A stretch of DNA of 64,000 nt from Paenibacillaceae bacterium (GTDB lineage Bacteria; Bacillota; Bacilli; Paenibacillales; UBA4045), in the NCBI GenBank assembly GCA_040880185.1, contig JBBDIY010000058.1:8046-72045 (forward strand). The letters are read 5' to 3'. Below are positions 2,067 to 18,848 of this stretch, in pieces. A model generated the notes under the pieces. The model was not told the DNA's origin and searched no databases. It worked only from the letters and a program-made list of their open reading frames with translations. Made by a program: the position numbers and the translations under genes. Within the stretch, counting starts at the first letter, position 1; each line of letters begins with the position of its first letter.

Positions 2067-2321
2067 ATGTATAAAGAATTACAGCATGTTGCCCTTGTTG
2101 TTCAGGATTTGGAGAAGGAAAGGCACTTTTATGAAGAGATTCTTGGGTTTCAAGTAAGCAAGGACCGACCGGATTTCGATTTCGATGGAATCTGGTATCA
2201 CATGGGCAGCTCGGAGCTGCATCTGGTTGTTCCGAATGTCCCCAGTGTCGGTGTGGAAAGTGAGCTTGGCAAAGGGAGCCTGTTTTACTGTACACTTCCT
2301 ATTTATTATGGAGATAATTGA
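2067..2321 (+). pseudogene. VOC/glyoxalase-family protein, N-terminal module only (truncated)
   Basis: MYKELQHVALVVQDLEKERHFYEEILGFQV...ELHLVV is a first beta-alpha-beta3 VOC module. The second module is missing. The reading frame runs into the 3' end of the convergent response-regulator gene. Confidence 0.6.
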
Positions 2322-2730
2322 CCAGCTTCGCTGCAACCTCGATGGGAAGAAAATATTGACCCTTCATGGCGTCACGAATGCTCTGAAGGAGCAGAGTATA
2401 TTCGGCTCTCTTTAATAAATACCCATTCGCTCCATTCGCAAGTCCCTCAATAACATATTCATCCTCATTGAATGTGGTTAGTATAAGAATAATGACCTTA
2501 GAATTACGCTCTCTGATCTTCTTAATGGCTTCTATACCATTCATGATGGGTAACTGGATATCCATAAGAACTAAATCAGGCTTGTACTGCTCTGTTTTCT
2601 TAATGGCATCAAGACCGTCTTGCGAGGTGGCCACAACTTCCATATCTGCTTCCGGATTGATCACTAGTTCAAGCCCATTGCGAATTAATGTCTCATCATC
2701 AACGACAAGCACTTTAATATGTGTAGTCAT
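2299..2730 (-). CDS. NarL/LuxR-family response regulator truncated to the receiver domain (no HTH output domain)
   Basis: VLVVDDETLIRNGL...DLVLMDIQLPIMNG...ILILTTF...GANGYLLK is a complete REC domain. The protein stops in the linker (IEVAAKLVNYLHNK*). No cognate kinase is adjacent. Confidence 0.7.
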   Translation of the reverse strand: MTTHIKVLVVDDETLIRNGLELVINPEADMEVVATSQDGLDAIKKTEQYKPDLVLMDIQLPIMNGIEAIKKIRERNSKVIILILTTFNEDEYVIEGLANGANGYLLKRAEYTLLLQSIRDAMKGQYFLPIEVAAKLVNYLHNK

Positions 2731-5332: not shown

Positions 5333-5381
5333 AAGCTGAATAATGGTTTGCTCAAGCTAAGAAGCATATGCCCCCGAAGCG

Positions 5382-5403
5382 AGTTTTCTCCGAAAACTTT
5401 TAC
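5382..5403 (+). terminator. Terminator-like hairpin after the lipL-like gene (AGTTTTC-TCC-GAAAACT + TTT)
   Basis: 7-bp stem at 5382-5388/5392-5398 followed by a short T run. Confidence 0.45.
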
Positions 5404-5408
5404 TTGGT

Positions 5409-5881
5409 TTAAGTTCCTTGACGTCTCAACCAGTTTGTTAATGTGTTTACTGGGATGTTAAATTCCTCAGCAATGTCTGGAAGAGATTTTTTGTTCGAAT
5501 TTGAACATATAGGATTTGGGGGAATGAATAGCGCAAATATACACTTAATCCACTTAGAATAGGGCGAAGTGAAGAAATAGTAACGATATACAACAAAAGA
5601 TCGAAATACCAAGAAATTCTCATGGAAATTCGAATTCAGTTGTAAAATCGCACTAATTATTGGTTAATGATCACATTACGTAGTAAACAGTTGTAATATC
5701 GCAGCTAAATTGCTCACTTCAACGATTTGTAGGTGTATGTTCCTATACCAACTCCCGTCCAACAATACAATATTATGTGTTATCACATCAAAGGACGCCG
5801 CAAGGCGTTTTTCTTATCTTGGATGTACTTCACCGTTTGTTCTTTAAACTCTTTACTGTGATGCGTACGTTGTTGTCCCAT
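5409..5881 (-). mobile_element. IS3-family transposase OrfA relic (N-terminal HTH part), interrupted and truncated
   Basis: Minus-strand ATG at 5881 (GGAG RBS) gives MGQQRTHHSKEFKEQTVKYIQDKK..., then loses homology. The HTH continuation KKSLPDIAEEFNIPVNTLTNWLRRQGT* is at 5492-5409. The two pieces are separated by about 0.3 kb of unrelated sequence. No OrfB is present. Confidence 0.6.
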
Positions 5882-6105
5882 CTTACACACTCCGCTCCCA
5901 TGTCACTCTCCAAGGTAGATTATAATCTCCCCCAAAAGTCAATTAGGGTTTTTCCCATGTGCGAGTCATAAATTTCAAGGGTTTTCCCTAATTGTATGCT
6001 TTAACGAATGCCCTTATTGTGTAAATACATCATGATTTCAATACATTAGATGGCTCCCCCAAGATAAATCTGAAAACGAGAACCATGTTTAGGAGGTGAA
6101 GTACA

Positions 6106-8052
6106 ATGCCCGTTCATTCCAGCAGTAGCGAAGCATTTCGCGAGATGTTTATTTTTGAAACGATTCAACTCATTGGGAAGCTTGAACAAATCATATTGAA
6201 TAGTGAAAAGTGTAACAATCTAGACACGCATGCTATTGATGAAATATTTAGGATTATGCATACAATTAAAGGCTCCTCCTCGATGATGTTCTATAAGCAT
6301 ATTGCGTTAGTTACTCATTCGGTTGAAGATGTGTTCTTCTATTTGCGCGATGAAAGAGAGAAAGAGTTTGATTGTGCCAAGCTAACAGATATCGTGTTAG
6401 AAGTAATTGACTTCATCAAGGTTGAAATAACAAAGCTTCAGGATGGACAAGATTTGGAAGGCGATCCATCTATACTGATCCAGGATATCCATGGATTCTT
6501 AGAACGTCTGAAGAACCCATCGACAGCAGGAACAATGTTAAATCCATATGAAGCTGTATTTAATTTTGTAGATGGCTGTGAGATGGAGAACATTAGAGCA
6601 TTCGGCATCATCCATAAACTGAAAGATAGGGCAGAGAACATCCGACATGTGCCAGAAGATCTGATTGATGATGAGAGCAGCATCGGGATCATTCGAAAAG
6701 ATGGGTTTAAGATTCTATTCCATTCGGAAGGACCTCAGGAGGAAATGTATGGTTTCCTCCAGGAAACGCTCTTTATTAAAGATTTTACATTGCGAGTCAT
6801 AGAGAAGAAGGTCATAAGCTTAGAGGAACCCATAATCGATCTGCTTGAGAAGACACCTGAGAAAGAATTGCGACCGGACAATCAAATTTCCACGAATAAG
6901 CAAAGTATCATCAGTGTGAGCGTTACAAAATTGGACAAGCTGATGGACCTTGTTGGCGAGATGGTCATTTCCGAAGCGATGGTTACACAAAACCCTGAAT
7001 TAGCTGACTTGGAGTTAGATAGCTTCCATAAAGCATCAAGGCAGTTAAAGAAGATTACGAATGAGCTGCAGGACATGGTCATGTCGATCCGCATGGTGGA
7101 GATTTCCACGACCTTTCACAAATTAAACCGAATTGTAAGAGATATGTCTAGAAAACTAAATAAAGAGGTTCAATTGCAAGTCATCGGTGAGGAAACAGAG
7201 GTAGATAAGAACATTATTGACCATATCTCAGATCCATTAATGCACCTAATTCGCAATGCTATAGATCATGGCTTGGAGCATGCCGAGGAACGCAAGGAGC
7301 AGGGCAAATCGGAGATCGGGACGATCACGCTTGAGGCGAAGAATGCTGGAAGTGAAGTATGGATTACGGTCAGGGATGATGGCAGGGGTCTTGATAAGCA
7401 GAAAATATTAAAAAGGGCAAGGGAGAACGGCCTGATTGTCCGACCAGAAAGCGAATTGACCGACAAAGAAATATACGCATTCATTTTCTTTGCAGGATTC
7501 TCCACGAACGAACAAGTCACGGAGTATTCAGGCCGTGGTGTAGGTATGGATGTAGTTACAAAGAATATTGAAGCTTTAGGCGGAGCCGTTTCTGTGGATA
7601 GCGTGCAATATAAAGGAACCGTTATCACGATAAAAATTCCGCTCACCTTAGCAATTATTGACGGAATGACCATCACAGTAGGAGGACTGAAGTATACGGT
7701 ACCAACGACCTCCATTAAGCAGTCCTTTAGAATAACACCCGCCGAAGTGATTCGAGATCCGAATAATAACGAGATGATCCTGGTTCGCGGGCAATGCCAC
7801 CCGATCATAAGATTGCATGAATTATTCAAGGTTCAAACCAGAATCACAAACTTACATGAAGGCATCATTATGATGGTGGAGAATGACGATAATATCGTTT
7901 GTCTGTTCGCAGATGAGCTGATCGATAAACAGCAGGTCGTTGTCAAGACAATGCCAAGCTACTTCAAGAAGATGAATGGAATAGCAGGTTGCACCATATT
8001 AGGCGATGGGAGTATTAGCTTAATACTAAATACATCAGATTTTTTCACATAG
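6106..8052 (+). CDS. cheA: Chemotaxis histidine kinase CheA (no receiver domain)
   Basis: Hpt H-box HTIKGSSSMM, dimerisation region, N-box HLIRNAIDHG, G-boxes DDGRGLD and GRGVGMD, C-terminal CheW-like domain. GGAGG RBS. Confidence 0.9.
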   Translation: MPVHSSSSEAFREMFIFETIQLIGKLEQIILNSEKCNNLDTHAIDEIFRIMHTIKGSSSMMFYKHIALVTHSVEDVFFYLRDEREKEFDCAKLTDIVLEVIDFIKVEITKLQDGQDLEGDPSILIQDIHGFLERLKNPSTAGTMLNPYEAVFNFVDGCEMENIRAFGIIHKLKDRAENIRHVPEDLIDDESSIGIIRKDGFKILFHSEGPQEEMYGFLQETLFIKDFTLRVIEKKVISLEEPIIDLLEKTPEKELRPDNQISTNKQSIISVSVTKLDKLMDLVGEMVISEAMVTQNPELADLELDSFHKASRQLKKITNELQDMVMSIRMVEISTTFHKLNRIVRDMSRKLNKEVQLQVIGEETEVDKNIIDHISDPLMHLIRNAIDHGLEHAEERKEQGKSEIGTITLEAKNAGSEVWITVRDDGRGLDKQKILKRARENGLIVRPESELTDKEIYAFIFFAGFSTNEQVTEYSGRGVGMDVVTKNIEALGGAVSVDSVQYKGTVITIKIPLTLAIIDGMTITVGGLKYTVPTTSIKQSFRITPAEVIRDPNNNEMILVRGQCHPIIRLHELFKVQTRITNLHEGIIMMVENDDNIVCLFADELIDKQQVVVKTMPSYFKKMNGIAGCTILGDGSISLILNTSDFFT

Positions 8053-8103
8053 TCACGATGGTTTTCAAGGTAGATCAGAAAGTATAAAGAGGAGCTGAAC
8101 AAT

Positions 8104-8595
8104 ATGTCGGAGGCAATCAGTGAAGTGTTCGTGGAAGAGGATACATTAAAGGGAAAGTTCCTTACATTCCCTCTCGGGACAGAGGATTACGGTATTGAAA
8201 TCAAATTCGTTACAGAAATCGTCGGGATCCAAGCGATCACCCCAATTCCGGGAATTCCCGAGTACATCAAAGGGATCATTAACTTAAGAGGCAAGATCAT
8301 CCCGGTCATGGATGTGCGATTGCGTTTCAAGAAAGAACCTAAAGCGTACAACGATCGAACCTGCATTGTTGTTATTGATATCAAGGAGGTGACTATTGGG
8401 CTCATCGTCGACAGCGTTTCGGAAGTTATATCGATCCCAGATGAGAACATCATTGAACCGCCCCATGTTAATAAAAATATTAACAATAGATTCATAGAAA
8501 GTATTGCCAAGATCAACAGTGCTGTGAAGTTAATATTGGATTGCGACAAACTGTTGAACGAAGAGGATTTGGCGGAACTAGAATTATTATCGTAA
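8104..8595 (+). CDS. cheW: Chemotaxis coupling protein CheW
   Basis: 163-aa single CheW-like domain ([16 protein letters not shown]...[10 protein letters not shown]). Confidence 0.9.
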
Positions 8596-8642
8596 AAAAT
8601 TTAGCTTATGCTTACATCAGAAACTTTCAGGAGGAATTAACT

Positions 8643-10325
8643 ATGAAATGGTTTATTAATTTAAAAATTGGTGTAAAACTTATCATCGGCTTTATCACGG
8701 TAGCGATTATTGCTGGAGTAGTTGGAGTAACAGGAATATTAAATTTAAATACGATCAATTCTTCGTATAGCGAGATGTCGGAGAATAATATTAATGCTTC
8801 AAAATCGATAGGAAATGTAGCTGTGGGTTTCCAGAACTTTAAAGTATATGTGCGGGATATTATGGTAGATAAAGGTAGCAATGACCGTGGTAAATATGTA
8901 ACTAAGGTTGAAGAGTATGACGTTATCCTGGAAGATAATATGAAACTATTCGAAACAACCATAAGATCGGAGGAAATAAAGGCAGAATATAAAAATCTCC
9001 AAGAATTGATTGAGAAATGGATACCTATTCGAGAAGAAATGATTAGTCTCTCTTTATCTAATAAAGAGGATCAAGCGGTGCAAATATTGCGTGCGGAAGG
9101 AGTTCCACTCACATTAGCGGTTCAAAGTTCGATTGACAAATTAATAGAGTTAAACGAAGTTTATTCCGCCCATGCAAGCGATACAAATTCATCATCTGCC
9201 AACAGAAGTATTCTCATCATGGCCATTCTAGTTGTTCTCGGTATGGTTGTAGCTATTACTCTGGGGATCTATATTTCCAGAATCATAAGTAAGCCTGTTA
9301 GGGATCTGGTTGCAGTTTCGGAGAAAATGGCGTCAGGCGATTTGAATGTAGATGTCCAGATTAATTCTAAAGATGAGATAGGCGCTCTGAGCGTTGCATT
9401 CAGTACGATGGTGGACAGTATCAATGAGGTGCTTACCAATATCAATGTGTCCTCCGAACAGGTTGCTGCAGGTTCCAGACAAGTATCGGATTCAAGCCAG
9501 GCTCTATCTCATGGGACTACTGAGCAAGCCAGCTCCATAGAGCAATTAACGGCATCGATGGAAGAGATATCAGCTCAGACCAAGCAGAATGCGATCAACG
9601 CCAACCAAGCTAATGAGATATCGATTGCTGCGGTTGAGAATGCCACCCAAGGCAACAATCAAATGAAGGAAATGCTGAAAGCGATGGAAGAGATCAATGA
9701 TTCCTCAGCGAATATATCCAAAATTATTAAAGTCATTGATGAAATCGCTTTTCAAACCAATATCTTAGCATTGAATGCAGCCGTCGAAGCAGCGAGGGCA
9801 GGCCAGCACGGTAAGGGCTTCGCCGTAGTCGCTGAGGAGGTTAGAAACTTAGCAGCACGCAGCGCCAATGCCGCCAAGGAAACAACCGATATGATCGAAG
9901 GTTCCATCAAGAAGGTGGATGCAGGTACGAAGATTGCTACTGCCACAGCAGACGCTCTGAATAAAATCGTTGAAGGTGTAGCTAAGGCGAGCACGCTTGT
10001 TGCTAATATTGCGAATGCATCCAACGAGCAGGCAACAGGAATCTCACAGGTCAATCAAGGGATTGCGCTCGTATCCGAGGTAACTCAAACCAACTCAGCG
10101 ACTTCTGAAGAGAGTGCTGCTGCAAGCGAAGAGCTGTCCAGTCAAGCCGAATTATTGAAAGAAATGGTTGGGAAATTCAAGCTCAGACAGGGCGGACCAG
10201 CACCATCAATGTATGGTGGAGGACATGTAAGTACTGAAGCTGGAAAACATAGTTATTCGCAAGCTGCTGTCACAAAACCGAAAATTAAAATCGCCCTGGA
10301 TGATATGGAATTTGGGAAGTATTAG
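8643..10325 (+). CDS. Methyl-accepting chemotaxis protein (2 TM, 4-helix-bundle-type sensor, HAMP, MA domain)
   Basis: Signalling hairpin [38 protein letters not shown]. Start moved to ATG 8643 (AGGAGG RBS) rather than 8541, which overlaps cheW. Confidence 0.9.
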
Positions 10326-11141
10326 ATGATTGCCATCACGGATTATGAATTTTCAAGGTTAGCGGAGTTAGTCAAGAGAAATTACGGGATTAACTTGGGG
10401 AAAGAGAAGAAGTCCCTGATGGTCGGCAGGCTGCATAACGTTCTAGTGCATAAGAACTTTGACAATTTCTCGGAATATTATGATTACATCGTAACCGATA
10501 ACACGGGGGACGCTCTTACGACACTGGTTGAGAAGCTTACGACGAATCACACGTATTTTATGCGTGAAGTTGAACATTTTAATTTTTTTCGAGATAAGGT
10601 ATTACCTAATATAATGAGAATAGAGACAAGCAGGGATTTGCGTATTTGGAGCGCTGGATGTTCTACGGGTGAAGAACCGTACACACTAGCCATGATTATC
10701 GCAGATATGTTCGGGTCCAATCAGGACGGATGGGAAACCAAAATTCTAGCAACCGATATATCCTCCAAAGTACTCGAAGCAGCTGCAAAAGGGGTATATC
10801 AAGATGAACAAATCACATCAATTCCAGTTGCTTGGAGGAATAAATATCTCAGAAAAGTCGATCATGACAAAAGTATGTTTATCGATCAGATGAGGAACCA
10901 AGTCATATTCAGACTATTTAATCTCATGAAGCCGACGTTCCCTTTCAAACGCAAATTTCATGCCATCTTCTGCCGGAATGTCATGATCTACTTCGACGCA
11001 GCAACAAAAAGGGCTTTAATTAACCGGTTTTATGAATGCATGGAACCCGGTGGATATTTATTCATTGGGCATTCAGAGTCAATAAGTCGCGATGATTCCA
11101 ATTATAAATATGTAATGCCATCGGTTTATAGAAAGGAGTAA
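10326..11141 (+). CDS. cheR: Chemotaxis protein methyltransferase CheR
   Basis: RIWSAGCSTGEEPYTLAM SAM-binding block. The start abuts the MCP stop (TAGATG). Confidence 0.9.
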   Translation: MIAITDYEFSRLAELVKRNYGINLGKEKKSLMVGRLHNVLVHKNFDNFSEYYDYIVTDNTGDALTTLVEKLTTNHTYFMREVEHFNFFRDKVLPNIMRIETSRDLRIWSAGCSTGEEPYTLAMIIADMFGSNQDGWETKILATDISSKVLEAAAKGVYQDEQITSIPVAWRNKYLRKVDHDKSMFIDQMRNQVIFRLFNLMKPTFPFKRKFHAIFCRNVMIYFDAATKRALINRFYECMEPGGYLFIGHSESISRDDSNYKYVMPSVYRKE

Positions 11142-11148
11142 ACCTGAA

Positions 11149-12186
11149 GTGAATCCACGAAGAAAAATTAGAGTGTTGGTTGTGGATGATTCACTACTGT
11201 TTAGAGAATCGTTGGCAATAGGTATCTCAGCAGATCCAACTATCGAAGTGATTGCCACGGCCGCAGACCCTTTCATCGCGAGAGACCGAATTATTGAATA
11301 TGAGCCGGACGTTATGACGCTAGATGTGGAGATGCCCAAGATGAATGGGATTGAGTTTTTGCGCAGGCTGATGCCCCAATACCCCATTCCTGTAGTTGTA
11401 GTAAGCTCACTTAGTGAGAATGTATTTGACGCTTTGAATGCGGGTGCGGTCGAGTTCGTCACCAAGCCCGATTCAAGGACTGAGCGTGGGATGGCCTATT
11501 TCATCAATGAACTAACGATTAAGATTAAAGTTGCATCAGTAGCGAATGTGTCAGAATGGAAAGCGAATGTAACCAGCAGCAGCTTGGGTGGAGAAAGGGT
11601 TAATTCGGATTCGAACATCAAGGTGATCGCCATGGGTGCCTCTACTGGGGGAACGGAAGCTACATACCAACTCTTAAAATCTTTCTCCAGAGATATACCG
11701 GGTATCGTTATTGTGCAGCACATGCCTCCCATATTCACGAGAATGTTCGCTGAACGGTTAAATAATAAAACGCTATTAGAGGTCAAGGAAGCTGAGGATG
11801 GGGATAAGCTTTATCCGGGTCGCGTGCTAATCGCTGCAGGTAATACTCATATGAAACTTAGGAAAACAGGGGGCACTTATGCTGTTGAATGTTACCCGGG
11901 TGAGAAAGTAAGCGGGCATTGCCCTTCAGTGGATGTGCTTTTCGAATCCGTTGCTGAGGCAGCCGGTACGAATGGGATGGGTGTAATCCTGACGGGTATG
12001 GGCAGCGATGGTGCCAAAGGGCTTCTCTCAATGAGGAGAAGAGGGGCGAGGACGATTGGACAGGATGAAGGTTCATCGATCGTGTATGGTATGCCCAAGG
12101 CTGCTTATACATTAGGTGCAGTTGAGATACAAGCTTCATTGGGTACGATGCCACAAGTTATATATTCTATTGTCAATGGACGATAA
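11149..12186 (+). CDS. cheB: Protein-glutamate methylesterase/deamidase CheB (REC + methylesterase)
   Basis: VLVVDDSLLFRE...DVMTLDVEMPKMNG receiver. Esterase blocks GASTGGTEA, VQHMPP, GMGSDGAKGL. GTG start with AAGGAG RBS. Confidence 0.9.
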   Translation: MNPRRKIRVLVVDDSLLFRESLAIGISADPTIEVIATAADPFIARDRIIEYEPDVMTLDVEMPKMNGIEFLRRLMPQYPIPVVVVSSLSENVFDALNAGAVEFVTKPDSRTERGMAYFINELTIKIKVASVANVSEWKANVTSSSLGGERVNSDSNIKVIAMGASTGGTEATYQLLKSFSRDIPGIVIVQHMPPIFTRMFAERLNNKTLLEVKEAEDGDKLYPGRVLIAAGNTHMKLRKTGGTYAVECYPGEKVSGHCPSVDVLFESVAEAAGTNGMGVILTGMGSDGAKGLLSMRRRGARTIGQDEGSSIVYGMPKAAYTLGAVEIQASLGTMPQVIYSIVNGR

Positions 12187-12190
12187 GGTG

Positions 12191-12664
12191 ATGAACCGAA
12201 TAGTTGGCATTGGACAATTTATAATCTCTAACCAGCAGACGGATGTATTGAAAACATATGCACTTGCTTCATGTATAGGAATAACGATGTATAGTCCTTC
12301 CAACAAAGTCTTAGGGATGGCACATATCGCTCTCCCTTTTTCTTCTATACATGATAGAGGTAACCAAGACCAACCTGCTTACTTTGCAGATAAAGCCATC
12401 CCATTGCTACTAATGGGGATGGAGACAGATTACGGATGCACAAGAAGCGAATGGATCATCAATCTTTATGGAGGTGCACAATCCATTCGAACAACGGACT
12501 TTTTTCAGATTGGTTCGAGAAATCTTGACGCCGTTAAATCAATCCTGATCGCAAACCAGCTCTCATTCGATGCATCCGAAACGGAAGGTACAAGGAGTAG
12601 AACGATTGAAATGGATGTCTTAACAGGTAAGGCCAGAATAATTCCACATCCATTAATTATCTAG
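12191..12664 (+). CDS. cheD: Chemoreceptor glutamine deamidase CheD
   Basis: MNRIVGIGQFIIS...LASCIGITMYS...GMAHIALP is typical of CheD. Start taken at ATG 12191, just after the cheB stop, not the track's 12116. Confidence 0.85.
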   Translation: MNRIVGIGQFIISNQQTDVLKTYALASCIGITMYSPSNKVLGMAHIALPFSSIHDRGNQDQPAYFADKAIPLLLMGMETDYGCTRSEWIINLYGGAQSIRTTDFFQIGSRNLDAVKSILIANQLSFDASETEGTRSRTIEMDVLTGKARIIPHPLII

Positions 12665-12683
12665 TAGATATTAATCTAAGTTA

Positions 12684-13439
12684 CTAGGAAAGCAAACTTT
12701 GAAGCTTAACTTGAACTTCGATGCGAGTTCCTTTACCGATTTCCGATAGGATGGAGAAGGTCCCGCCTATAGATTCAGCTCTCTCTTTCATATCGTACAA
12801 TCCCAATCCTGATGTTTTGCTTTTCGTCCCGGTTTGGAACCCAGTACCTTCATCTGCCACAATAAGTAGAAGCTGATCTGGCAAATTTGTGATTTGAACG
12901 TCCACCCGACTCGTTTCTGCATATTTCGCAGTATTAGTAAGCGCCTCCTGAGTAATCCGGTAGAGAGCCGTTTCGATGTTCTGCGGATAGCGATTATGTT
13001 TACCAATTATCTGGAAATTGGTGTGTATACCGAACGTTCGCTCATACTTGTCCAGATAGGAACGGATCGCAGGGATTAGACCCAAGTTATCCAATGTCGC
13101 GGGTCGCAGCTCAGTTGCCAGCCGTTTCACTTCATCCAGGGCTTTGTCAGTCATTTTCTCCATTTCTAGCAAATGATCTCGGAATGAATGTTCTATCTTC
13201 AGGTTTTTCATAATTTTCAACCCAACAAGTACACTGTAAAGCGCCTGACCAATGCTATCGTGTAATTCGTGGGATATGCGTTTGCGTTCTTCCTCTTGGG
13301 CCTCAATCAGCTTATTCCTCGTTGATTGTTGCATCTTCTGAAAATTCATATATTGCTTCCTGGAATAAAGGAGATAGGTTATAAAAACGATTAAAAAGAT
13401 TAATAAATTTAGGAGACATAGTACAAATACTTGATCCAA
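12684..13439 (-). CDS. Sensor histidine kinase, HisKA_3/NarL-partner type, single TM and no obvious sensor domain
   Basis: H-box EEERKRISHELHDSIGQ. HATPase_c blocks ITQEALTNTAKYA, DEGTGF, GLGLYDMKERAESIGG. Confidence 0.85.
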   Translation of the reverse strand: MDQVFVLCLLNLLIFLIVFITYLLYSRKQYMNFQKMQQSTRNKLIEAQEEERKRISHELHDSIGQALYSVLVGLKIMKNLKIEHSFRDHLLEMEKMTDKALDEVKRLATELRPATLDNLGLIPAIRSYLDKYERTFGIHTNFQIIGKHNRYPQNIETALYRITQEALTNTAKYAETSRVDVQITNLPDQLLLIVADEGTGFQTGTKSKTSGLGLYDMKERAESIGGTFSILSEIGKGTRIEVQVKLQSLLS

Positions 13440-13462
13440 TAGATCATATCTCCTTTCTATGA

Positions 13463-14119
13463 TTAAGAGTCCAGATAGCCTTGTTTAATAGCATAACTGA
13501 CCAGCTCAGCACGAGTTCTCAGCTCAAGCTTTTCCATAATCTTCGATTTGTGAGCTTCGACGGTTTTAATGGATATGAACAGAAGATCAGCAATTTCCTT
13601 GTTGGAGTGCCCTTTTGCGATAAGCGGTACAACCTCACACTCACGCGTGGTCAATCCATTCAGTAGCTCCGCGCCCTTTGGAGTGGCAGTACTTGGGTGG
13701 AGTAATTCCTGGATGATCATTTTGGTGGCTTGAGGAGATAAATAGGCTTCCTTTTTGGAAACTATTCGGATAGCATCAATGATTTCTGCTTCTTGAGAAT
13801 TTTTCAATATGTATCCTGAAGCCCCTGCTTTTAAGAAGCTAAACAAATATTCCTGATCTTCATGCATCGTAAGCACCAGAATTTCCACATCAGGTAAGGC
13901 TTTCTTGAGCCGGGTAGTAGCACTAAGGCCGTCCTCGCCTGGCGGCATGTTCAGATCCATAATAACGATATCAGGCTTTAATTCCAAGGATTTGTCATAA
14001 GCTTCCTTGCCATCATTGGCGGTTGCGACTACTTCCATATCTTTCTCAGCATTGATGAGCATAGACAGCCCTGCACGAATGACGGCATGATCGTCTGCAA
14101 TTAGGACTTTACTCTTCAA
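13463..14119 (-). CDS. NarL/LuxR-family response regulator
   Basis: REC (VLIADDHAVIRAGL...DIVIMDLNMP) plus LuxR HTH (LTTRECEVVPLIAKGHSNKEIADLLFISIKTVEAHKSKI). A TTG start at 14119 follows GAGGTGGGAG. The track ORF extends to ATG 14152. Confidence 0.85.
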   Translation of the reverse strand: MKSKVLIADDHAVIRAGLSMLINAEKDMEVVATANDGKEAYDKSLELKPDIVIMDLNMPPGEDGLSATTRLKKALPDVEILVLTMHEDQEYLFSFLKAGASGYILKNSQEAEIIDAIRIVSKKEAYLSPQATKMIIQELLHPSTATPKGAELLNGLTTRECEVVPLIAKGHSNKEIADLLFISIKTVEAHKSKIMEKLELRTRAELVSYAIKQGYLDS

Positions 14120-14214
14120 GGTTCTCTCCCACCTCACATCTACATATAGCATTCATACATAAATCACAAATTTGAATATGATGCAATAGTACTATATATA
14201 CAGTACATTATATA

Positions 14215-16608
14215 GTGAAATATGACCATTACCAAATGCATAATATTCATGATTCTGTGTATTTACATACTTTATGCTTAAATAATGGACGGTGCTACAG
14301 AATGCTGATTATACCTTCACAATGGTTTTTACCGGCACATACTTCTTTGGAAATTCTCTCTGTATTTTTTTCGTTTATTGTATTTCTGCTCGGTTGGAGT
14401 GCCTATACGCCGGACCGCCCCCGCAATATGATCTTCTTGTCCTGTTCTTTCCTAAGCGTGGGATTGCTTGACTTTCTTCACACGATGTCCTATGAAGGAA
14501 TGCCCCTGTTCGTTACCTCAAACAACACACATAAGGCGATTGTTTTCTGGCTTGCTGCTCGGCTTGTTGCTACATTCACGTTGCTTATAGTTGTGTTATT
14601 ATCTTGGAAGCGGTTCCAACACAGTCATTCGCGTTACTACAGCTTGTTTGCTAGTCTTAGTTTGTGTGTGTTGTTGGCATGGGTCGGTCTCTTCCGAGCG
14701 GATTGGATACCTAAGACCTACATTGTGGGGTACGGACTGACTCCCTTCAAGATTGGAATGGAAGTGGCTATCTTAGTTGTACTCCTGTTTATTATGGCTA
14801 TCCTCCTTACTGGTTTTCGGATCATCGAGGGTATCCATAAGTGGAGTTTGATTATTGCGATATGCTTTATGATCCTAAGTGGGCCGTGTTTTATTTTCTA
14901 TAATCACATTACAGATCTAATGAATTTCGTAGGGCATCTGCTCAAGGCTATCGCTTACTATTTCATCTATCAGGCTATATTGAAGGATAGCGTGCACGTT
15001 CCCTACGCTAAATTGGTGCAAACAGATAAGGAACTGATCGAAACTAGGGAGAAATTCGCCGCAACGATTCATTGTATGCAAGAGGCTGTTATTATCTCCG
15101 GTGTATCGGGTCAGATAGAGCTTATCAACCCCAGTGCTCAGCGGATAACACAATGGTCTGAAGCAGAAGCGCTTGGGAAGAAATCAGAAATGGTCGTGCA
15201 GGTAGCGAAACCCGATGGAGAAACTGATCTTATATTGACGACCAGGCAGGGTATCAGAGTGCCAATCGAGTTTTCCACATCTCCAATCATTGACGACAAT
15301 GGATATCATTTAGGGATTACTTACATGATTCGCGATATTACTGAACAAATTGAATCGGGGAAAATACAAGCTCGAATGAATGCCATCCTTGAGCAGGCGA
15401 CCAACTTTATATCGATCACAAATTCGAGAGGGGAAATCCTTTATTGCAACGAGGCTGCCCGCAACATTCTTGGAATTGAATCGCAACGCCCGCTTTACAG
15501 TACTGCCGTACAAGCCTATCCCGAATGGGCTTGGGATCTTGTGCTAAACCAAGCTGTGCCTACGGCTGTTCAAGATGGTTTGTGGCATGGTGAGACCGTA
15601 TTGTTGGACAAGAATGGAAAGCAATTCCCTGTGTCACAAACGATTGTGACTCACAAAAATAGAGATGGACAAGTCGAATTTTTCTCCACAATTAGTCATG
15701 ATATTACAGAGCACAAGCAGGCCGAACAACGGGATAAGCTCTCCGCTAAATTATTCGAGTCCGCAAGCGAAGGATTTATGATCACTGATGCCCAACATAT
15801 CATTCTTCAAGTCAACCCTGCCTTTGTTACTATAACGGGATATGAGGAAGACGAGGTGCTGGGGAATACTCCACGAATTCTGAGCTCAGGCTGGCATAAG
15901 CAGGAGTTTTACGCAGGGATGTGGAAAAGTATTCAGGAGACGAGTCGTTGGTCTGGACAGATATGGAATAAACATAAGAACGGCGAATATTATCTCGAAG
16001 AAATTACGATCAGTGAAGTGAATGACCAAACATCTGATTATGCGTATTATGTTGCTGTTTTTAAAGATATTACTGAGGAGAAGCAACTTGAAGCTAAACT
16101 GTTTCATCAAGCATCGCATGACATTCTGACCGATCTGCCGAACCGATCAACACTTTCCGAACGTTTCGAGCAAGCCATGCAATACGTGCAACATCACAAG
16201 CTTATCATCTGTGTTCTATATCTCAATATAGATAATTTGAAGCTGATTAACGAAACATTCGGACACAGTGTAGGTGATCAGCTGTTGAAATCGATTGCAG
16301 AACAACTGAAATTTAATGCACGCGCTAGCAGCACGGTTGCTCGAATCGGCGGGGACGAATTTGTGATCCTTCTGCCCGACCTGCGTCACCAAGAAGACTA
16401 TATGCGAGTCGCTGACAAGACTTGTGAGGTCATGTCAGTGCCATTTGACATAGTCAGTCCGCCAATAGATGTCGCATTCAGCATCGGTATCTGCTTCTAC
16501 CCCGACCATGGTGATACGCTGGATGCCTTGATTAAGAATGCCAATCATGCCATGCAAAAGGCGAAACAAATAGGACCGAATCAATATCAGCTATTCCATA
16601 CGACGTAA
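14215..16608 (+). CDS. Membrane-anchored PAS/PAS/PAS-GGDEF diguanylate cyclase (MASE3-like N-terminal membrane domain)
   Basis: About 7 TM helices, then three PAS-like segments, then GGDEF with an intact RIGGDEF active site. No RxxD I-site 5 aa upstream (RASS instead). No EAL domain. The true start may be ATG 14302. Confidence 0.85.
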   Translation: MKYDHYQMHNIHDSVYLHTLCLNNGRCYRMLIIPSQWFLPAHTSLEILSVFFSFIVFLLGWSAYTPDRPRNMIFLSCSFLSVGLLDFLHTMSYEGMPLFVTSNNTHKAIVFWLAARLVATFTLLIVVLLSWKRFQHSHSRYYSLFASLSLCVLLAWVGLFRADWIPKTYIVGYGLTPFKIGMEVAILVVLLFIMAILLTGFRIIEGIHKWSLIIAICFMILSGPCFIFYNHITDLMNFVGHLLKAIAYYFIYQAILKDSVHVPYAKLVQTDKELIETREKFAATIHCMQEAVIISGVSGQIELINPSAQRITQWSEAEALGKKSEMVVQVAKPDGETDLILTTRQGIRVPIEFSTSPIIDDNGYHLGITYMIRDITEQIESGKIQARMNAILEQATNFISITNSRGEILYCNEAARNILGIESQRPLYSTAVQAYPEWAWDLVLNQAVPTAVQDGLWHGETVLLDKNGKQFPVSQTIVTHKNRDGQVEFFSTISHDITEHKQAEQRDKLSAKLFESASEGFMITDAQHIILQVNPAFVTITGYEEDEVLGNTPRILSSGWHKQEFYAGMWKSIQETSRWSGQIWNKHKNGEYYLEEITISEVNDQTSDYAYYVAVFKDITEEKQLEAKLFHQASHDILTDLPNRSTLSERFEQAMQYVQHHKLIICVLYLNIDNLKLINETFGHSVGDQLLKSIAEQLKFNARASSTVARIGGDEFVILLPDLRHQEDYMRVADKTCEVMSVPFDIVSPPIDVAFSIGICFYPDHGDTLDALIKNANHAMQKAKQIGPNQYQLFHTT

Positions 16609-16650
16609 TCAGTTTTATCCACTAATCCTACAAATTCTGCCACTAAATCC

Positions 16651-16872
16651 TTACCAGTTAATTAGATATTTCACTGCGCCACAAGCACTCGTAAACGTGA
16701 GCTCGATGTACCGATCATAGGAAGGCTCGTCCCAATAGGCAGGTGCTTCGAGCTCATGCTTACGAATAAACTTCTGGATAGCATCTGTTAGTGACGAACC
16801 CAGTATAATATGGTCCTTCTCTCTATAGCCTGTTATCGTACAATGGATAAGATCGAATTTATATTTAATCAA
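16651..16872 (-). CDS. Hypothetical 73-aa protein, last gene of the CheY-like/CheX-like operon
   Basis: ORF 26 nt downstream of the preceding gene on the same strand. No recognisable domain. Confidence 0.5.
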   Translation of the reverse strand: MIKYKFDLIHCTITGYREKDHIILGSSLTDAIQKFIRKHELEAPAYWDEPSYDRYIELTFTSACGAVKYLINW

Positions 16873-16898: not shown

Positions 16899-17807
16899 TT
16901 AAGCATCGAGATTTGATAGATCAGTAATCAATAGATCAAAGCTGAAGTCAGGTCCAATTACTTGGATAACCGACTTGACGGTTGAGCTTGTTCCGAATTC
17001 AGAACCACGCTTGACCTTCTGTGGAAGCAAATTGAGTTCCACACCCTGATTCGAACGATTGACCAAATATATACCGTTGTTTAAATTGAGGAATTCGCCA
17101 ATCGCGGCTTCCATCATTTCCCCTGGAGCGTCCACGTTCTCTTGTGCATATATGGAAGCAAATCGGAGGAAGGCTTGCTCTGTGCCGGCCATAGCAGTTA
17201 TTCGCTCTACCGTATAGTCTTCGCTTTGAATCGATTGCAGGGCAACCCAATCATAAGCCTGTGAATCACTAGTCTGTCCAATCTCCATCCGAATATCACT
17301 ATCGATGAATCGAATCAAATTCTTAGCGAACAGACTCATGTAATCCACGAGTACGGAATCCGCCGAAATGCCAGCCTTTAATAATTCAGCCTCTAGTAGT
17401 GCCTCGATATCGCCATTCACAATCGCTTGGAACTGCTCGTTGGATAAGCTATTCTCTTGCTTGTATTGAGACAATGCCCTTGAGAAGGCTTCGTATCTCA
17501 TGATTTCATGATCAATTAGTGCTTGTCCGAGTGCAAGATGTGCGCTTGGTTGTGCGGATAATAGTTCATCTATGATATCTTCTTGAATAAACCCGAGATC
17601 TACAGCAATTTCACCGAATCGTTTATCCATTCGAGTCTGAGCTTGGTGAACAGCCTCAACCTGCTCAGCAGTCATGAATCCACGGTTAATCGCAAGCACA
17701 CCGAGCTTAACTCGAGTATCCTTCTGGGCGATTAAAGCTTTCTCAAGCTCGTTAGATGTAATTAAGTCTTGATTGAGCAGGAATTGGCCAAAGTATTGTG
17801 CGAACAT
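16899..17807 (-). CDS. Fusion protein: four tandem MshEN/T2SSE_N-type 24-residue motifs (putative c-di-GMP binding) plus a C-terminal CheX-like CheY-P phosphatase domain
   Basis: Residues 5-115 are 4 x (24-aa motif + 5-aa spacer) fitting RLGxxLLxxGLIxxxxLxxxLxxQ. The C-terminus has AIGEFLNLNNG...P, a CheC/CheX E-x2-N signature. The ATG overlaps the upstream stop (TAATG). Confidence 0.65.
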   Translation of the reverse strand: MFAQYFGQFLLNQDLITSNELEKALIAQKDTRVKLGVLAINRGFMTAEQVEAVHQAQTRMDKRFGEIAVDLGFIQEDIIDELLSAQPSAHLALGQALIDHEIMRYEAFSRALSQYKQENSLSNEQFQAIVNGDIEALLEAELLKAGISADSVLVDYMSLFAKNLIRFIDSDIRMEIGQTSDSQAYDWVALQSIQSEDYTVERITAMAGTEQAFLRFASIYAQENVDAPGEMMEAAIGEFLNLNNGIYLVNRSNQGVELNLLPQKVKRGSEFGTSSTVKSVIQVIGPDFSFDLLITDLSNLDA

Positions 17808-18169
17808 TAGCAGTCACCTCGTAGATTGTGGATTTTGTTCATGATATCCAAGATAGCATCAATCTGTACCGGTTTTTGTAGAAAATTCTCCGCACCAAGC
17901 TTGATCGCCTTCATTAAGTTACCTTGTGTACCTACTGAAGATGCGATAACCACATGGATGTTGGGGTTATTCTGTTTGATTTCCTGAAGAGCCTCTAGAC
18001 CATCCTTCTTCGGCATCGTGATATCGAGCAATACAAGATCAGGATTCTCCTTTAAACAAAGAGCAACTGCTTCTTCTCCATCGGCTGCCTCGTACAATAA
18101 CTCACGTAGTAGCCGCTTCACGGCCAATGTGTTGCATTGTATCCTCATTCTACCATATCCCCCCGTCAT
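17807..18169 (-). CDS. CheY-like single-domain receiver with degenerate N-terminus (acidic DD pair absent)
   Basis: Retains DLVLLDITMPKKDG (phospho-Asp), VVIASS (T/S) and FLQKP (Lys). Beta1 reads MRIQCNTLA instead of ILIVDDS, and the beta2 segment is missing. The start may be ATG 18148. Confidence 0.7.
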   Translation of the reverse strand: MTGGYGRMRIQCNTLAVKRLLRELLYEAADGEEAVALCLKENPDLVLLDITMPKKDGLEALQEIKQNNPNIHVVIASSVGTQGNLMKAIKLGAENFLQKPVQIDAILDIMNKIHNLRGDC

Positions 18170-18295
18170 TATTCGACAATTACCAGGTTATAATCTTGAA
18201 TTGACATTAAATTACGTAACGAATATATTTAGGTTACCTAATTAATAGGTATCCAATCTAATTTAGAGCATATATTTTAAGGAAATTGAGATTTC

Positions 18296-18361
18296 TCGAT
18301 ACGGATCGACTTCCAATTAAACACACTTGCTACTCGATACGGATCGACTTCCAATTAAACT
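18296..18361. repeat. Two perfect 28-bp direct repeats (CTCGATACGGATCGACTTCCAATTAAAC), 38-bp period, in the marR-ABC promoter region
   Basis: Copies at 18296-18323 and 18334-18361, 47 nt upstream of the MarR start. Confidence 0.9.
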
Positions 18362-18407
18362 CCCTTGTTAGTCACGACAGTTTAATTTCCAGAGGAGGTA
18401 GTTAACC

Positions 18408-18848
18408 ATGAATTCAGCTGTGGCTCAGAAGCTACTTAAATCCTTCATGCATTTCAATAGAGCTTATTGGCAGCAGAAGGAAGTGCTGGAATACAAGAAT
18501 AGCGAAGTAATGATGCTCATGTGCATTAAGAAGAATGATAAAATCGATTCCCCAGGGTTAATGGTATCGGAAATTAGTCACCTTCTCCAAGTGACTTCTC
18601 CCACGGTTACTCAATTACTCAAAGGTATGGAGAAGAAAGAATTAATCGAGCGTAATCTGGATCAGGTGGATCGACGTGTAGTTCGCATTAAGCTCACAGA
18701 TCAAGGAAAGCTTATAACCGAACAAGCAGAAGCGGCGTTCCGTGCATCATTCAGTGGGTTGATAGAGCATTTAGGTGAGGAAGAGAGCAATCAGTTAGCT
18801 GATTTATTAGCTAAAGCGTATTTATTCTTTAAAGAATCGAGCAGATAA
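18408..18848 (+). CDS. MarR family transcriptional regulator
   Basis: 146 aa, winged-helix block VSEISHLLQVTSPTVTQLLKGMEKKELIERNLDQVDRRVVRIKLT. GGAGG RBS. Confidence 0.85.
   Translation: MNSAVAQKLLKSFMHFNRAYWQQKEVLEYKNSEVMMLMCIKKNDKIDSPGLMVSEISHLLQVTSPTVTQLLKGMEKKELIERNLDQVDRRVVRIKLTDQGKLITEQAEAAFRASFSGLIEHLGEEESNQLADLLAKAYLFFKESSR

Follow-up and report, generated by a model that had tools for sequence, protein, structure and literature searches.

A (MshEN_N)2-CheX fusion gene beside a truncated CheY-like receiver in a Paenibacillaceae genome, encoding a putative c-di-GMP-controlled receiver-phosphate phosphatase

A stretch of 64,000 nucleotides from a Paenibacillaceae bacterium (assembly GCA_040880185.1, contig JBBDIY010000058.1, positions 8,046 to 72,045), referred to here as the window, carries a gene that is a member of the (MshEN_N)2-CheX family. 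Its product, 302 amino acids (aa) long, joins two N-terminal MshEN_N-type modules, related to the cyclic di-GMP (c-di-GMP) binding domain of MshE, to a CheX-type domain that keeps the catalytic Glu/Asn pair. Across the family the gene has a CheY-like receiver gene as its partner; in this genome that partner is truncated, and the fusion gene is under purifying selection. The explanation that best covers the locus as a whole, which we hold at a probability of about 0.6, is that the gene encodes a c-di-GMP-controlled putative receiver-phosphate phosphatase whose own receiver has been truncated here.

Domain architecture of the fusion protein

The gene and the parts of its product are located as follows (coordinates are those of the window, with the basis of each entry in brackets):

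16899..17807, minus strand: (MshEN_N)2-CheX fusion gene (open reading frame (ORF) with ATG start, 302 aa; homologues; dN/dS, the ratio of nonsynonymous to synonymous substitution rates)
17724..17795, minus strand: motif unit 1, residues 5-28, YFGQFLLNQDLITSNELEKALIAQ (part of the NF053729 match)
17637..17708, minus strand: motif unit 2, residues 34-57, KLGVLAINRGFMTAEQVEAVHQAQ (aligned to MshE motif I, R9...)
17550..17621, minus strand: motif unit 3, residues 63-86, RFGEIAVDLGFIQEDIIDELLSAQ (aligned to MshE motif II)
17463..17534, minus strand: motif unit 4, residues 92-115, ALGQALIDHEIMRYEAFSRALSQY (the most divergent unit)
17358..17453, minus strand: helical linker, residues ~119-150 (AlphaFold helices 123-130 and 134-144; conserved SLSDEQF stretch)
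16902..17357, minus strand: CheX-type domain, residues ~151-302 (Foldseek against the PDB, profile against the PDB, Pfam CheX in relatives)
17085..17096, minus strand: predicted catalytic E238-F-L-N241, the sole ExxN site (aligned on the CheX catalytic Glu/Asn)
17022..17024, minus strand: Pro262 of the ExxN...P signature (P262-Q263 nearly invariant; aligned on CheX 'TPP')

As the original prediction had stated, the translation contains four consecutive 24-residue units at the positions listed, separated by spacers of exactly 5 residues and repeating with a period of 29, and the match to the NCBIfam model NF053729 agrees with this layout. Because a direct Pfam scan of the 302-aa protein gave only noise (sub-threshold FumaraseC_C and DUF2110_C, with no T2SSE_N, CheX or CheC match), the domains were identified through NCBIfam, through a predicted structure compared by Foldseek, and through profile searches. 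The proposed fusion of MshEN-type repeats to a CheX-like domain was borne out by the NCBIfam match, sequence searches of the PDB, Foldseek and the profile alignment. In an AlphaFold2 model built on the family alignment (mean predicted local distance difference test score, pLDDT, 85.5; predicted template modelling score, pTM, 0.77), the N-terminal part folds into eight helices paired as hairpins, as expected for four motifs; two linker helices follow, and the C-terminal domain is of the alpha/beta type. When the predicted structure was compared by Foldseek with MshEN bound to c-di-GMP and with T. maritima CheX, both halves of the protein found their match. The SLSDEQF stretch of the linker is conserved in the family alignment.

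The MshEN-type motif units

The model NF053729 (NCBIfam 'cyclic di-GMP-binding domain-containing protein, MshE-related') has 53 positions, corresponding to 24+5+24, and a cut-off of 38 bits. It matches the 302-aa protein with 80.7 bits (E = 4.8e-23) over three stretches, the best of them residues 6-57, and the 24-residue repeat, as read from the translation, is far beyond chance. Searching the PDB with the single sequence retrieved T. thermophilus PilF (E = 4.8e-6) and V. cholerae MshE (E = 0.007), and the same two proteins were retrieved by a 40-sequence family profile with E-values of 2.6e-10 and 2.9e-6, respectively. Both phmmer and profile searches of the PDB align units 2 and 3 on MshE motifs I and II. 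In the predicted structure, 53 N-terminal residues superpose on the MshE-c-di-GMP complex (5htl) with a root-mean-square deviation of 0.7-1.0 A and 30% identity, a short match with a weak Foldseek E-value of 0.13.

Each unit of the 302-aa protein and of 39 relatives was scored against the relaxed MshEN motif of Wang et al., [RKPN]hGxxhhxx[GAS]hhxxxxhxxxhxx[QNKRYWST], the strict form of which is RLGxx(L/V/I)(L/V/I)xxG(L/V/I)(L/V/I)xxxxLxxxLxxQ (PMC5013675); conservation was taken from the 40-sequence alignment. The original prediction had each unit fitting the published motif, and this stands for unit 3 in the relaxed form. All positions of unit 3 fit, as they do in 35 of 39 relatives, and D61, K62, F64, G65, E66, A68 and Q86 in its region are invariant. 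Unit 2, with K34, G36, G43 and Q57 conserved, misses the relaxed motif at position 21 alone, where it has His, as do 34 of 39 relatives. Units 1 and 4 depart from it at position 1 and, in the 302-aa protein, at position 10 as well. Position 1 of unit 1 is Tyr instead of Arg in 38 of the 39 relatives, and at position 10 the Asp of the 302-aa protein stands against Gly in 20 of them; F6, G7, L10 and L21 are invariant. Unit 4 has a hydrophobic residue at position 1, Gly (24/39) or Ala (15/39) at position 3 in the relatives, Glu at position 10 in the 302-aa protein and Tyr at position 24, with L93, Q95 and D99 invariant. The Gly at motif position 3, the substitution of which in MshE abolishes c-di-GMP binding (PMC5013675), is invariant in units 1-3, and units 2 and 3 always have Gln at position 24, as unit 1 almost always does. 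The caveat attached to the original prediction, that the repeats have degenerate positions and that no unit but unit 3 retains the leading Arg, proved accurate, yet the same deviations run through the relatives; judged from the alignment, they are traits of the family and not decay of this gene.

A different reading of these deviations is that the repeats are MshEN-derived hairpins that no longer bind c-di-GMP and form a dimerisation, scaffold or other-ligand domain, with the CheX domain constitutive or otherwise regulated. Three of the four units are off the relaxed motif at family-conserved positions, unit 3 alone has the leading Arg, and, per Wang et al., many MshEN domains have probably lost binding, for example XpsE (PMC5013675). 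The Pfam search that had been proposed for this region likewise failed, with T2SSE_N (PF05157) giving no match to the 302-aa protein at E <= 1 and being absent among the families matched by 40 relatives. The T2SSE_N model spans MshEN_N and MshEN_C, and the 302-aa protein showed no match to a region of MshEN_C type. We nevertheless regard the loss of binding as unlikely, since Tyr or Lys in place of Arg is a conservative change for a hydrophobic and stacking pocket, Gly3 and Gln24 hold in units 1-3 as described above, the curated c-di-GMP motif model is matched at twice its cut-off, and the MshEN part is the most constrained of the protein, with a dN/dS of 0.045-0.068.

As a separate observation, weak Pfam matches to FumaraseC_C (PF10415) are found in 36 of 40 family members, and to DUF4388 (PF14332) in 33 of 40. 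The FumaraseC_C match in the 302-aa protein covers residues 64-85, which is motif unit 3, and is the sole match given with a position. Matches of this sort may reflect low-level helical-hairpin similarity, or may be a sign of an MshEN-like motif inside DUF4388.

The CheX-type domain

Foldseek searches of the PDB with the C-terminal ~150 residues retrieved 3iic, 1squ/1xko (T. maritima), 3hm4, 6vpw and 3hzh_B, the last being B. burgdorferi CheX in complex with CheY3. The matches to CheX structures have E-values from 3e-7 to 7e-6 and target-normalised template modelling (TM) scores of 0.65-0.78, and CheC, FliY and FliM rank below them. The domain is about 150 aa long, not the ~130 aa first estimated. 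In the C-terminal profile the family sequence 'sVgEfLNLhNG...lePQ' aligns with T. maritima 'aIGELGNMTAG...ITPP' and B. burgdorferi 'TLTEVGNIIAG...ITPP', and because this alignment superimposes them, E238, N241 and P262 are assigned to the CheX catalytic Glu and Asn and the conserved Pro. All three residues are nearly invariant in the 40-sequence alignment, and E[FL]LN[LM] is kept in 79 of 80 loci, these being the best 80 species loci among 323 genomes, from which all the module statistics below were drawn. Inspection of the domain's first helix (residues 152-167) found no second ExxN; the single site that is left agrees with CheX and sets the domain apart from CheC and FliY.

The AIGEFLNLNNG...P signature was correctly described in the original prediction, including the Ala that stands four residues before the Glu where the classical motif has D/S; E238, N241 and P262 are all present in it. 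In the relatives a Ser is mostly found at -3 from the Glu, and an Asp at -4 in few only. P262 follows N241 after 20 residues; Park et al. 2004 reportedly give the textbook motif with 22 residues in place of these 20. The proposed search with Pfam CheX (PF13690) was partly productive: the 302-aa protein falls below any threshold, while 34 of the 40 relatives match weakly at E <= 0.1, the best with 3.4e-6.

A phosphorylated CheY-like receiver loses its phosphate faster when the Glu/Asn pair of a CheX-type protein enters its active site. It is conceivable that the domain studied here is non-catalytic and binds the receiver-phosphate, so that the protein would serve the partner receiver as an adaptor or sequestering factor that depends on c-di-GMP. 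The non-phosphatase FliM does occur among the Foldseek matches, the classical D/S position is not kept and the Pfam CheX matches are weak. With Glu and Asn retained in 79 of 80 loci in exact alignment with the CheX catalytic pair, however, and with CheX structures outscoring both FliM and CheC, we consider this quite improbable and retain the reading as a putative phosphatase.

A two-gene module with a CheY-like receiver

An ORF ends within -20 to +5 nucleotides of the fusion start codon in all 80 loci. By hidden Markov model (HMM) this upstream ORF is a CheY-like receiver in 79 of them, and in 78 the canonical receiver N-terminus '...LICDDSxLIRKK...', with the CDDS Asp-Asp motif, is present. 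The best NCBIfam matches of the partner receiver are CheY and the CheB receiver domain. Among six related loci with called genes, a stand-alone receiver ending at or overlapping the start codon of the fusion gene is the only conserved neighbour. The presence of the receiver upstream in 79 of 80 loci leads us to take the pair as the functional unit, a conserved two-gene module in which a dedicated receiver is translationally coupled upstream of (MshEN_N)2-CheX.

Two of the related loci, L004 and L005, which form the closest clade, have the operon in the order 169-aa membrane protein, AIM24-family protein, receiver, fusion gene and 73-aa ORF (orf73 below). At 8345-9540 of L004 and 8424-9622 of L005, the first two genes encode a protein of 169/170 aa, predicted to be a membrane protein with coiled coils, and a member of the AIM24 family (PF01987). 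The window and a third related locus, L006, have lost the two genes by deletion.

Truncation of the receiver in this genome

Two features lie directly upstream of the fusion gene:

17807..18169, minus strand: 5'-truncated CheY-like receiver remnant (Response_reg match from profile position 27; only about 17807..18094 is receiver-homologous)
18147..18157, minus strand: extended -10-like element TATGGTAGAAT, a putative operon promoter (inside the mechanical receiver ORF)

The original prediction had the fusion gene coupled through TAATG to a CheY-like gene. The overlap is there, in that the stop codon of ORF 17807..18169 overlaps the fusion-gene ATG as TAATG and the GAGGTGA Shine-Dalgarno sequence of the fusion gene lies just before it, inside the remnant, but the receiver is a 5'-truncated remnant and not an intact gene. 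Pfam Response_reg matches it from profile position 27 onward only, and the first 28 match positions of the receiver HMM are empty. Alignment with the other partners shows the Asp-Asp pair to be missing (...RIQCNT... in the mechanical ORF), along with about eight more residues. The DNA upstream of about 18094 gave no alignment to receiver coding sequence; it aligns to the promoter/leader before the 169-aa gene in L004 and L005 and before the relic in L006, which means that the operon promoter region has been joined by a deletion to the interior of the receiver gene. With beta1, alpha1 and the Asp-Asp metal-binding pocket removed in this way, the cognate substrate is probably non-functional.

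Two other accounts of the missing N-terminus were rejected. It is not hidden upstream in another frame, since the sequence preceding the remnant aligns with the promoter region of the operon in the relatives, and the truncation is not an artefact of assembly, as independent Logan contigs from three sediment-metagenome runs span the junction with 0-2 differences and no indels.

The -10-like element has a conserved counterpart, TATGATAGAAT, before the operon of L004, L005 and L006, following the pattern TATG(A/G)TAGAAT, and we infer that it belongs to the operon promoter; a simple promoter scan did not call it. A search of the window against Rfam at gathering thresholds found neither a c-di-GMP riboswitch nor an RNA of another kind, and 18100-18450 gave no match even at E <= 1.

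The partner receiver has been damaged independently in several genomes, namely the window, L006, L005 and L016. The receiver of L006 (4173-4235) is a relic of about 20 codons, MYNLKILLC/ANKIFNQRGDR and a stop, still ending in TAATG; that of L005 (9639-10001) has a six-residue deletion, and that of L016 lacks its N-terminus through a 5' truncation. That the window and L006 both keep the TAATG and the Shine-Dalgarno sequence suggests that the fusion gene relies for its translation on an upstream ORF that terminates at this junction.

Selection on the fusion gene

Within the clade of close relatives the dN/dS of the fusion gene is 0.065-0.143, and between the window and L006, both of which are without an intact receiver, it is 0.125 at a dS of about 0.8. 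The fusion gene remains under purifying selection despite the truncation of its partner. Since this selection persists without the partner, the fusion protein presumably acts on another CheY-type receiver or independently of a receiver. The retained 3' part of the receiver has a low dN, and the truncation may for this reason be recent.

We also weighed whether the module is decaying, that is, whether the fusion gene is a functionless leftover of receiver loss in which damage has not yet accumulated. The truncated receiver in the window, the relic of L006, the deletion in L005 and the loss in the window of the two upstream operon genes of L004 and L005 are what such a process would leave. The fusion ORF, however, is full length with every family-conserved residue present, the dN/dS of 0.125 was obtained between two receiver-less genomes at considerable dS, both deletions keep an ORF ending at TAATG with the Shine-Dalgarno sequence, and the downstream orf73 is strongly conserved too. 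We therefore judge decay very improbable, and treat the fusion gene as a functional member of its family.

Distribution of the family and prior knowledge

In a 90%-clustered collection 507 homologues are detectable. The top 120 are nearly all about 290-310 aa long, most of them align across 88-100% of the query, and some are named CheX by UniRef. A profile search of a 50%-clustered library gave 376 clusters at E <= 1e-30, uniform in length, and a scan of one genome per species found relatives in 323 genomes, so that the survey of the fusion's spread that had been proposed extends well past the Paenibacillaceae. The genera include Paenibacillus, Caldalkalibacillus, Bacillus sensu lato, Cytobacillus, Lysinibacillus, Ureibacillus, Robertmurraya and Clostridium, and by these searches the (MshEN_N)2-CheX architecture is common in Bacillota. 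The closest relative in the species-representative scan is a Paenibacillaceae metagenome-assembled genome (82% identity). Paenibacillus radicis has two receiver + (MshEN_N)2-CheX modules on one scaffold (L015 and L063; 59% and 45% identity to the 302-aa protein), both with intact receivers.

The architecture was catalogued by Wang et al. 2016 (Nat Commun 7:12481, PMC5013675), who list '(MshEN_N)2 - CheX' in Supplementary Table 4 for Geobacter lovleyi Glov_2742 (ACD96455), with Deltaproteobacteria and Firmicutes as its distribution. The original prediction knew of no characterised example; this holds for the literature that we searched, although the novelty it implied was overstated. Because the architecture has been in the literature since 2016, the value lies in testing it and not in discovering it. 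What is new here is the strict receiver partnership, the absence of conserved che or GGDEF linkage, and the truncated partner in this genome.

Neighbouring genes and insertions

Three further features lie downstream of the fusion gene in its direction of transcription:

16651..16872, minus strand: orf73, the 73-aa ORF directly downstream of the fusion gene (kept in L004, L005 and L006)
14215..16608, plus strand: GGDEF gene, MASE3 + PAS x3 + intact GGDEF motif (convergent with the fusion operon)
6106..12664, plus strand: che cluster without cheY (CheA, CheW, MCP, CheR, CheB, CheD)

The orf73 product shows 79-92% identity in L004, L005 and L006, and its dN/dS of about 0.05 is tighter than that of the fusion gene. 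It belongs to no Pfam or NCBIfam family and is not downstream of the module in the more distant L001-L003. In this clade it is probably the last gene of the operon.

The original prediction placed the fusion gene beside a GGDEF cyclase and an orphan che operon. Both are present, but the adjacency is not conserved in relatives. A block of about 11 kb (~5333-16650), holding the cheY-less che cluster, a HisKA_3/NarL-type two-component pair and the MASE3-PAS x3-GGDEF gene, is flanked by a lipoate-ligase gene and orf73, two genes that neighbour each other directly in L006 and are parted by unrelated genes in L004 and L005. The block appears to be an insertion relative to the close relatives, and the che and GGDEF adjacency, as far as the compared sequences go, is specific to this genome. 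None of the six related loci has che genes beside the module, which led us to reject a functional link to the che operon or the GGDEF gene through conserved synteny; being unconserved in relatives, these neighbours are weak evidence for such a link.

Two side observations concern other parts of the window. At 18295-18322 and 18333-18360 (minus strand), between a marR-like gene and the operon promoter, stand two exact direct copies of GTTTAATTGGAAGTCGATCCGTATCGAG, 10 nucleotides apart and each with the palindrome TCGAT-ccgt-ATCGA inside. The pair is absent at this place in L004, these are the only two copies in the window, and there is no Rfam match. In four sediment-metagenome runs the contig word-depth climbs from about 15 to about 9000 across 18290-18400, and contigs break there with varied flanks, which suggests that GTTTAATTGGAAGTCGATCCGTATCGAG is a dispersed high-copy repeat in the community. 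Separately, a 143-aa stand-alone receiver at 2299-2730 (minus strand) has an intact Asp-Asp pocket (VLVVDDETLIRNGL...) and matches the partner-receiver HMM with E = 1.2e-18; it is not CheY-like by eye.

Proposed mechanism and its standing

We propose that c-di-GMP would bind the N-terminal motifs; units 2 and 3 are the most plausible site, as they are the best match to MshE. Binding may then alter the access to the CheX domain or its dimer state, and the level of c-di-GMP could in this manner set the lifetime of the receiver-phosphate. The present analysis establishes the identities of the domains and the two-gene module; binding, phosphatase activity and the direction of regulation are inferred. 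In this genome, where a deletion has joined promoter and leader to the middle of the receiver, the enzyme would act on another CheY-type receiver or have a receiver-independent role.

Several of the results above weigh against this explanation. Unit 3 alone meets the relaxed motif, with family-conserved deviations in units 1, 2 and 4, and the non-binder XpsE departs from MshE by changes of a similar type (PMC5013675). Neither Pfam T2SSE_N nor Pfam CheX recognises the 302-aa protein, and Ala takes the place of the classical D/S four residues before E238. Loss of or damage to the partner in the window and L006, with L005 and L016 as possible further cases, is awkward for a strictly dedicated pair of enzyme and substrate. 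Finally, no characterised (MshEN_N)2-CheX member was found in the full-text literature, subscription-only papers lying outside that search.

A broader and more tentative suggestion, possible but which we would hold to be doubtful, is that the module is a self-contained, c-di-GMP-gated phosphate sink or reset in hundreds of Bacillota species, and that in this clade the phosphatase has a second target, either the main CheY or the output of the cheY-less che cluster. A second physiological target is suggested by the persistence of the phosphatase, still under purifying selection, in a clade where its own receiver has been lost repeatedly. If so, c-di-GMP would directly tune the lifetime of phosphorylated CheY in these bacteria.

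Should the proposed c-di-GMP control of a receiver-phosphate phosphatase be correct, a single protein would link the level of c-di-GMP to the lifetime of a phosphorylated CheY-like protein. The second messenger of the motile/sessile decision would thereby be connected directly to chemosensory signalling in Gram-positive bacteria, a group with few known c-di-GMP receptors. With its large size, its uniformity and its constant pairing with a receiver of its own, the family is an easy biochemical target. The present locus adds to it a natural experiment, in which the phosphatase has been kept after truncation of its partner.

Comparison with known systems

The N-terminal part shares with MshE (5htl) and the GSPII domains of T. 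thermophilus PilF the pair of 24-residue motifs with a 5-residue spacer, the helix-turn-helix hairpin, and Gly3 and Gln24. In MshE a single motif pair precedes an MshEN_C subdomain and a secretion ATPase, whereas the fusion protein has four successive motifs, neither MshEN_C nor ATPase, and the position-1 Arg in unit 3 only.

The C-terminal part shares with the CheX phosphatases of T. maritima (1xko/1squ), B. burgdorferi (3hzh) and V. vulnificus (6vpw) the fold, the single ExxN helix and the subsequent Pro. Classical CheX stands alone, is about 150 aa long and has D/S upstream of the Glu; the fusion protein has 12-15% identity to it, lacks the D/S and carries a 150-aa N-terminal sensor extension.

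The nearest entry by listed architecture is Glov_2742, whose domains agree in order and number, CheX being preceded by two MshEN_N modules (four motifs). It differs in being a catalogue listing alone, and an upstream receiver partner is not mentioned in the text consulted.

Two other systems tie c-di-GMP effectors to the level of phosphorylated CheY or to CheY-like motor regulators. V. cholerae PlzC, a PilZ protein, inhibits a stand-alone CheX, reportedly independently of c-di-GMP (PMC12799141), and work on it is the closest functional study in the literature searched; the Caulobacter Cle proteins are CheY-like proteins with Arg-rich tails (cited in PMC12448109). In these the receptor role falls to a distinct PilZ protein or to the CheY-like protein, whereas in the (MshEN_N)2-CheX fusion the putative receptor is joined to the predicted phosphatase.

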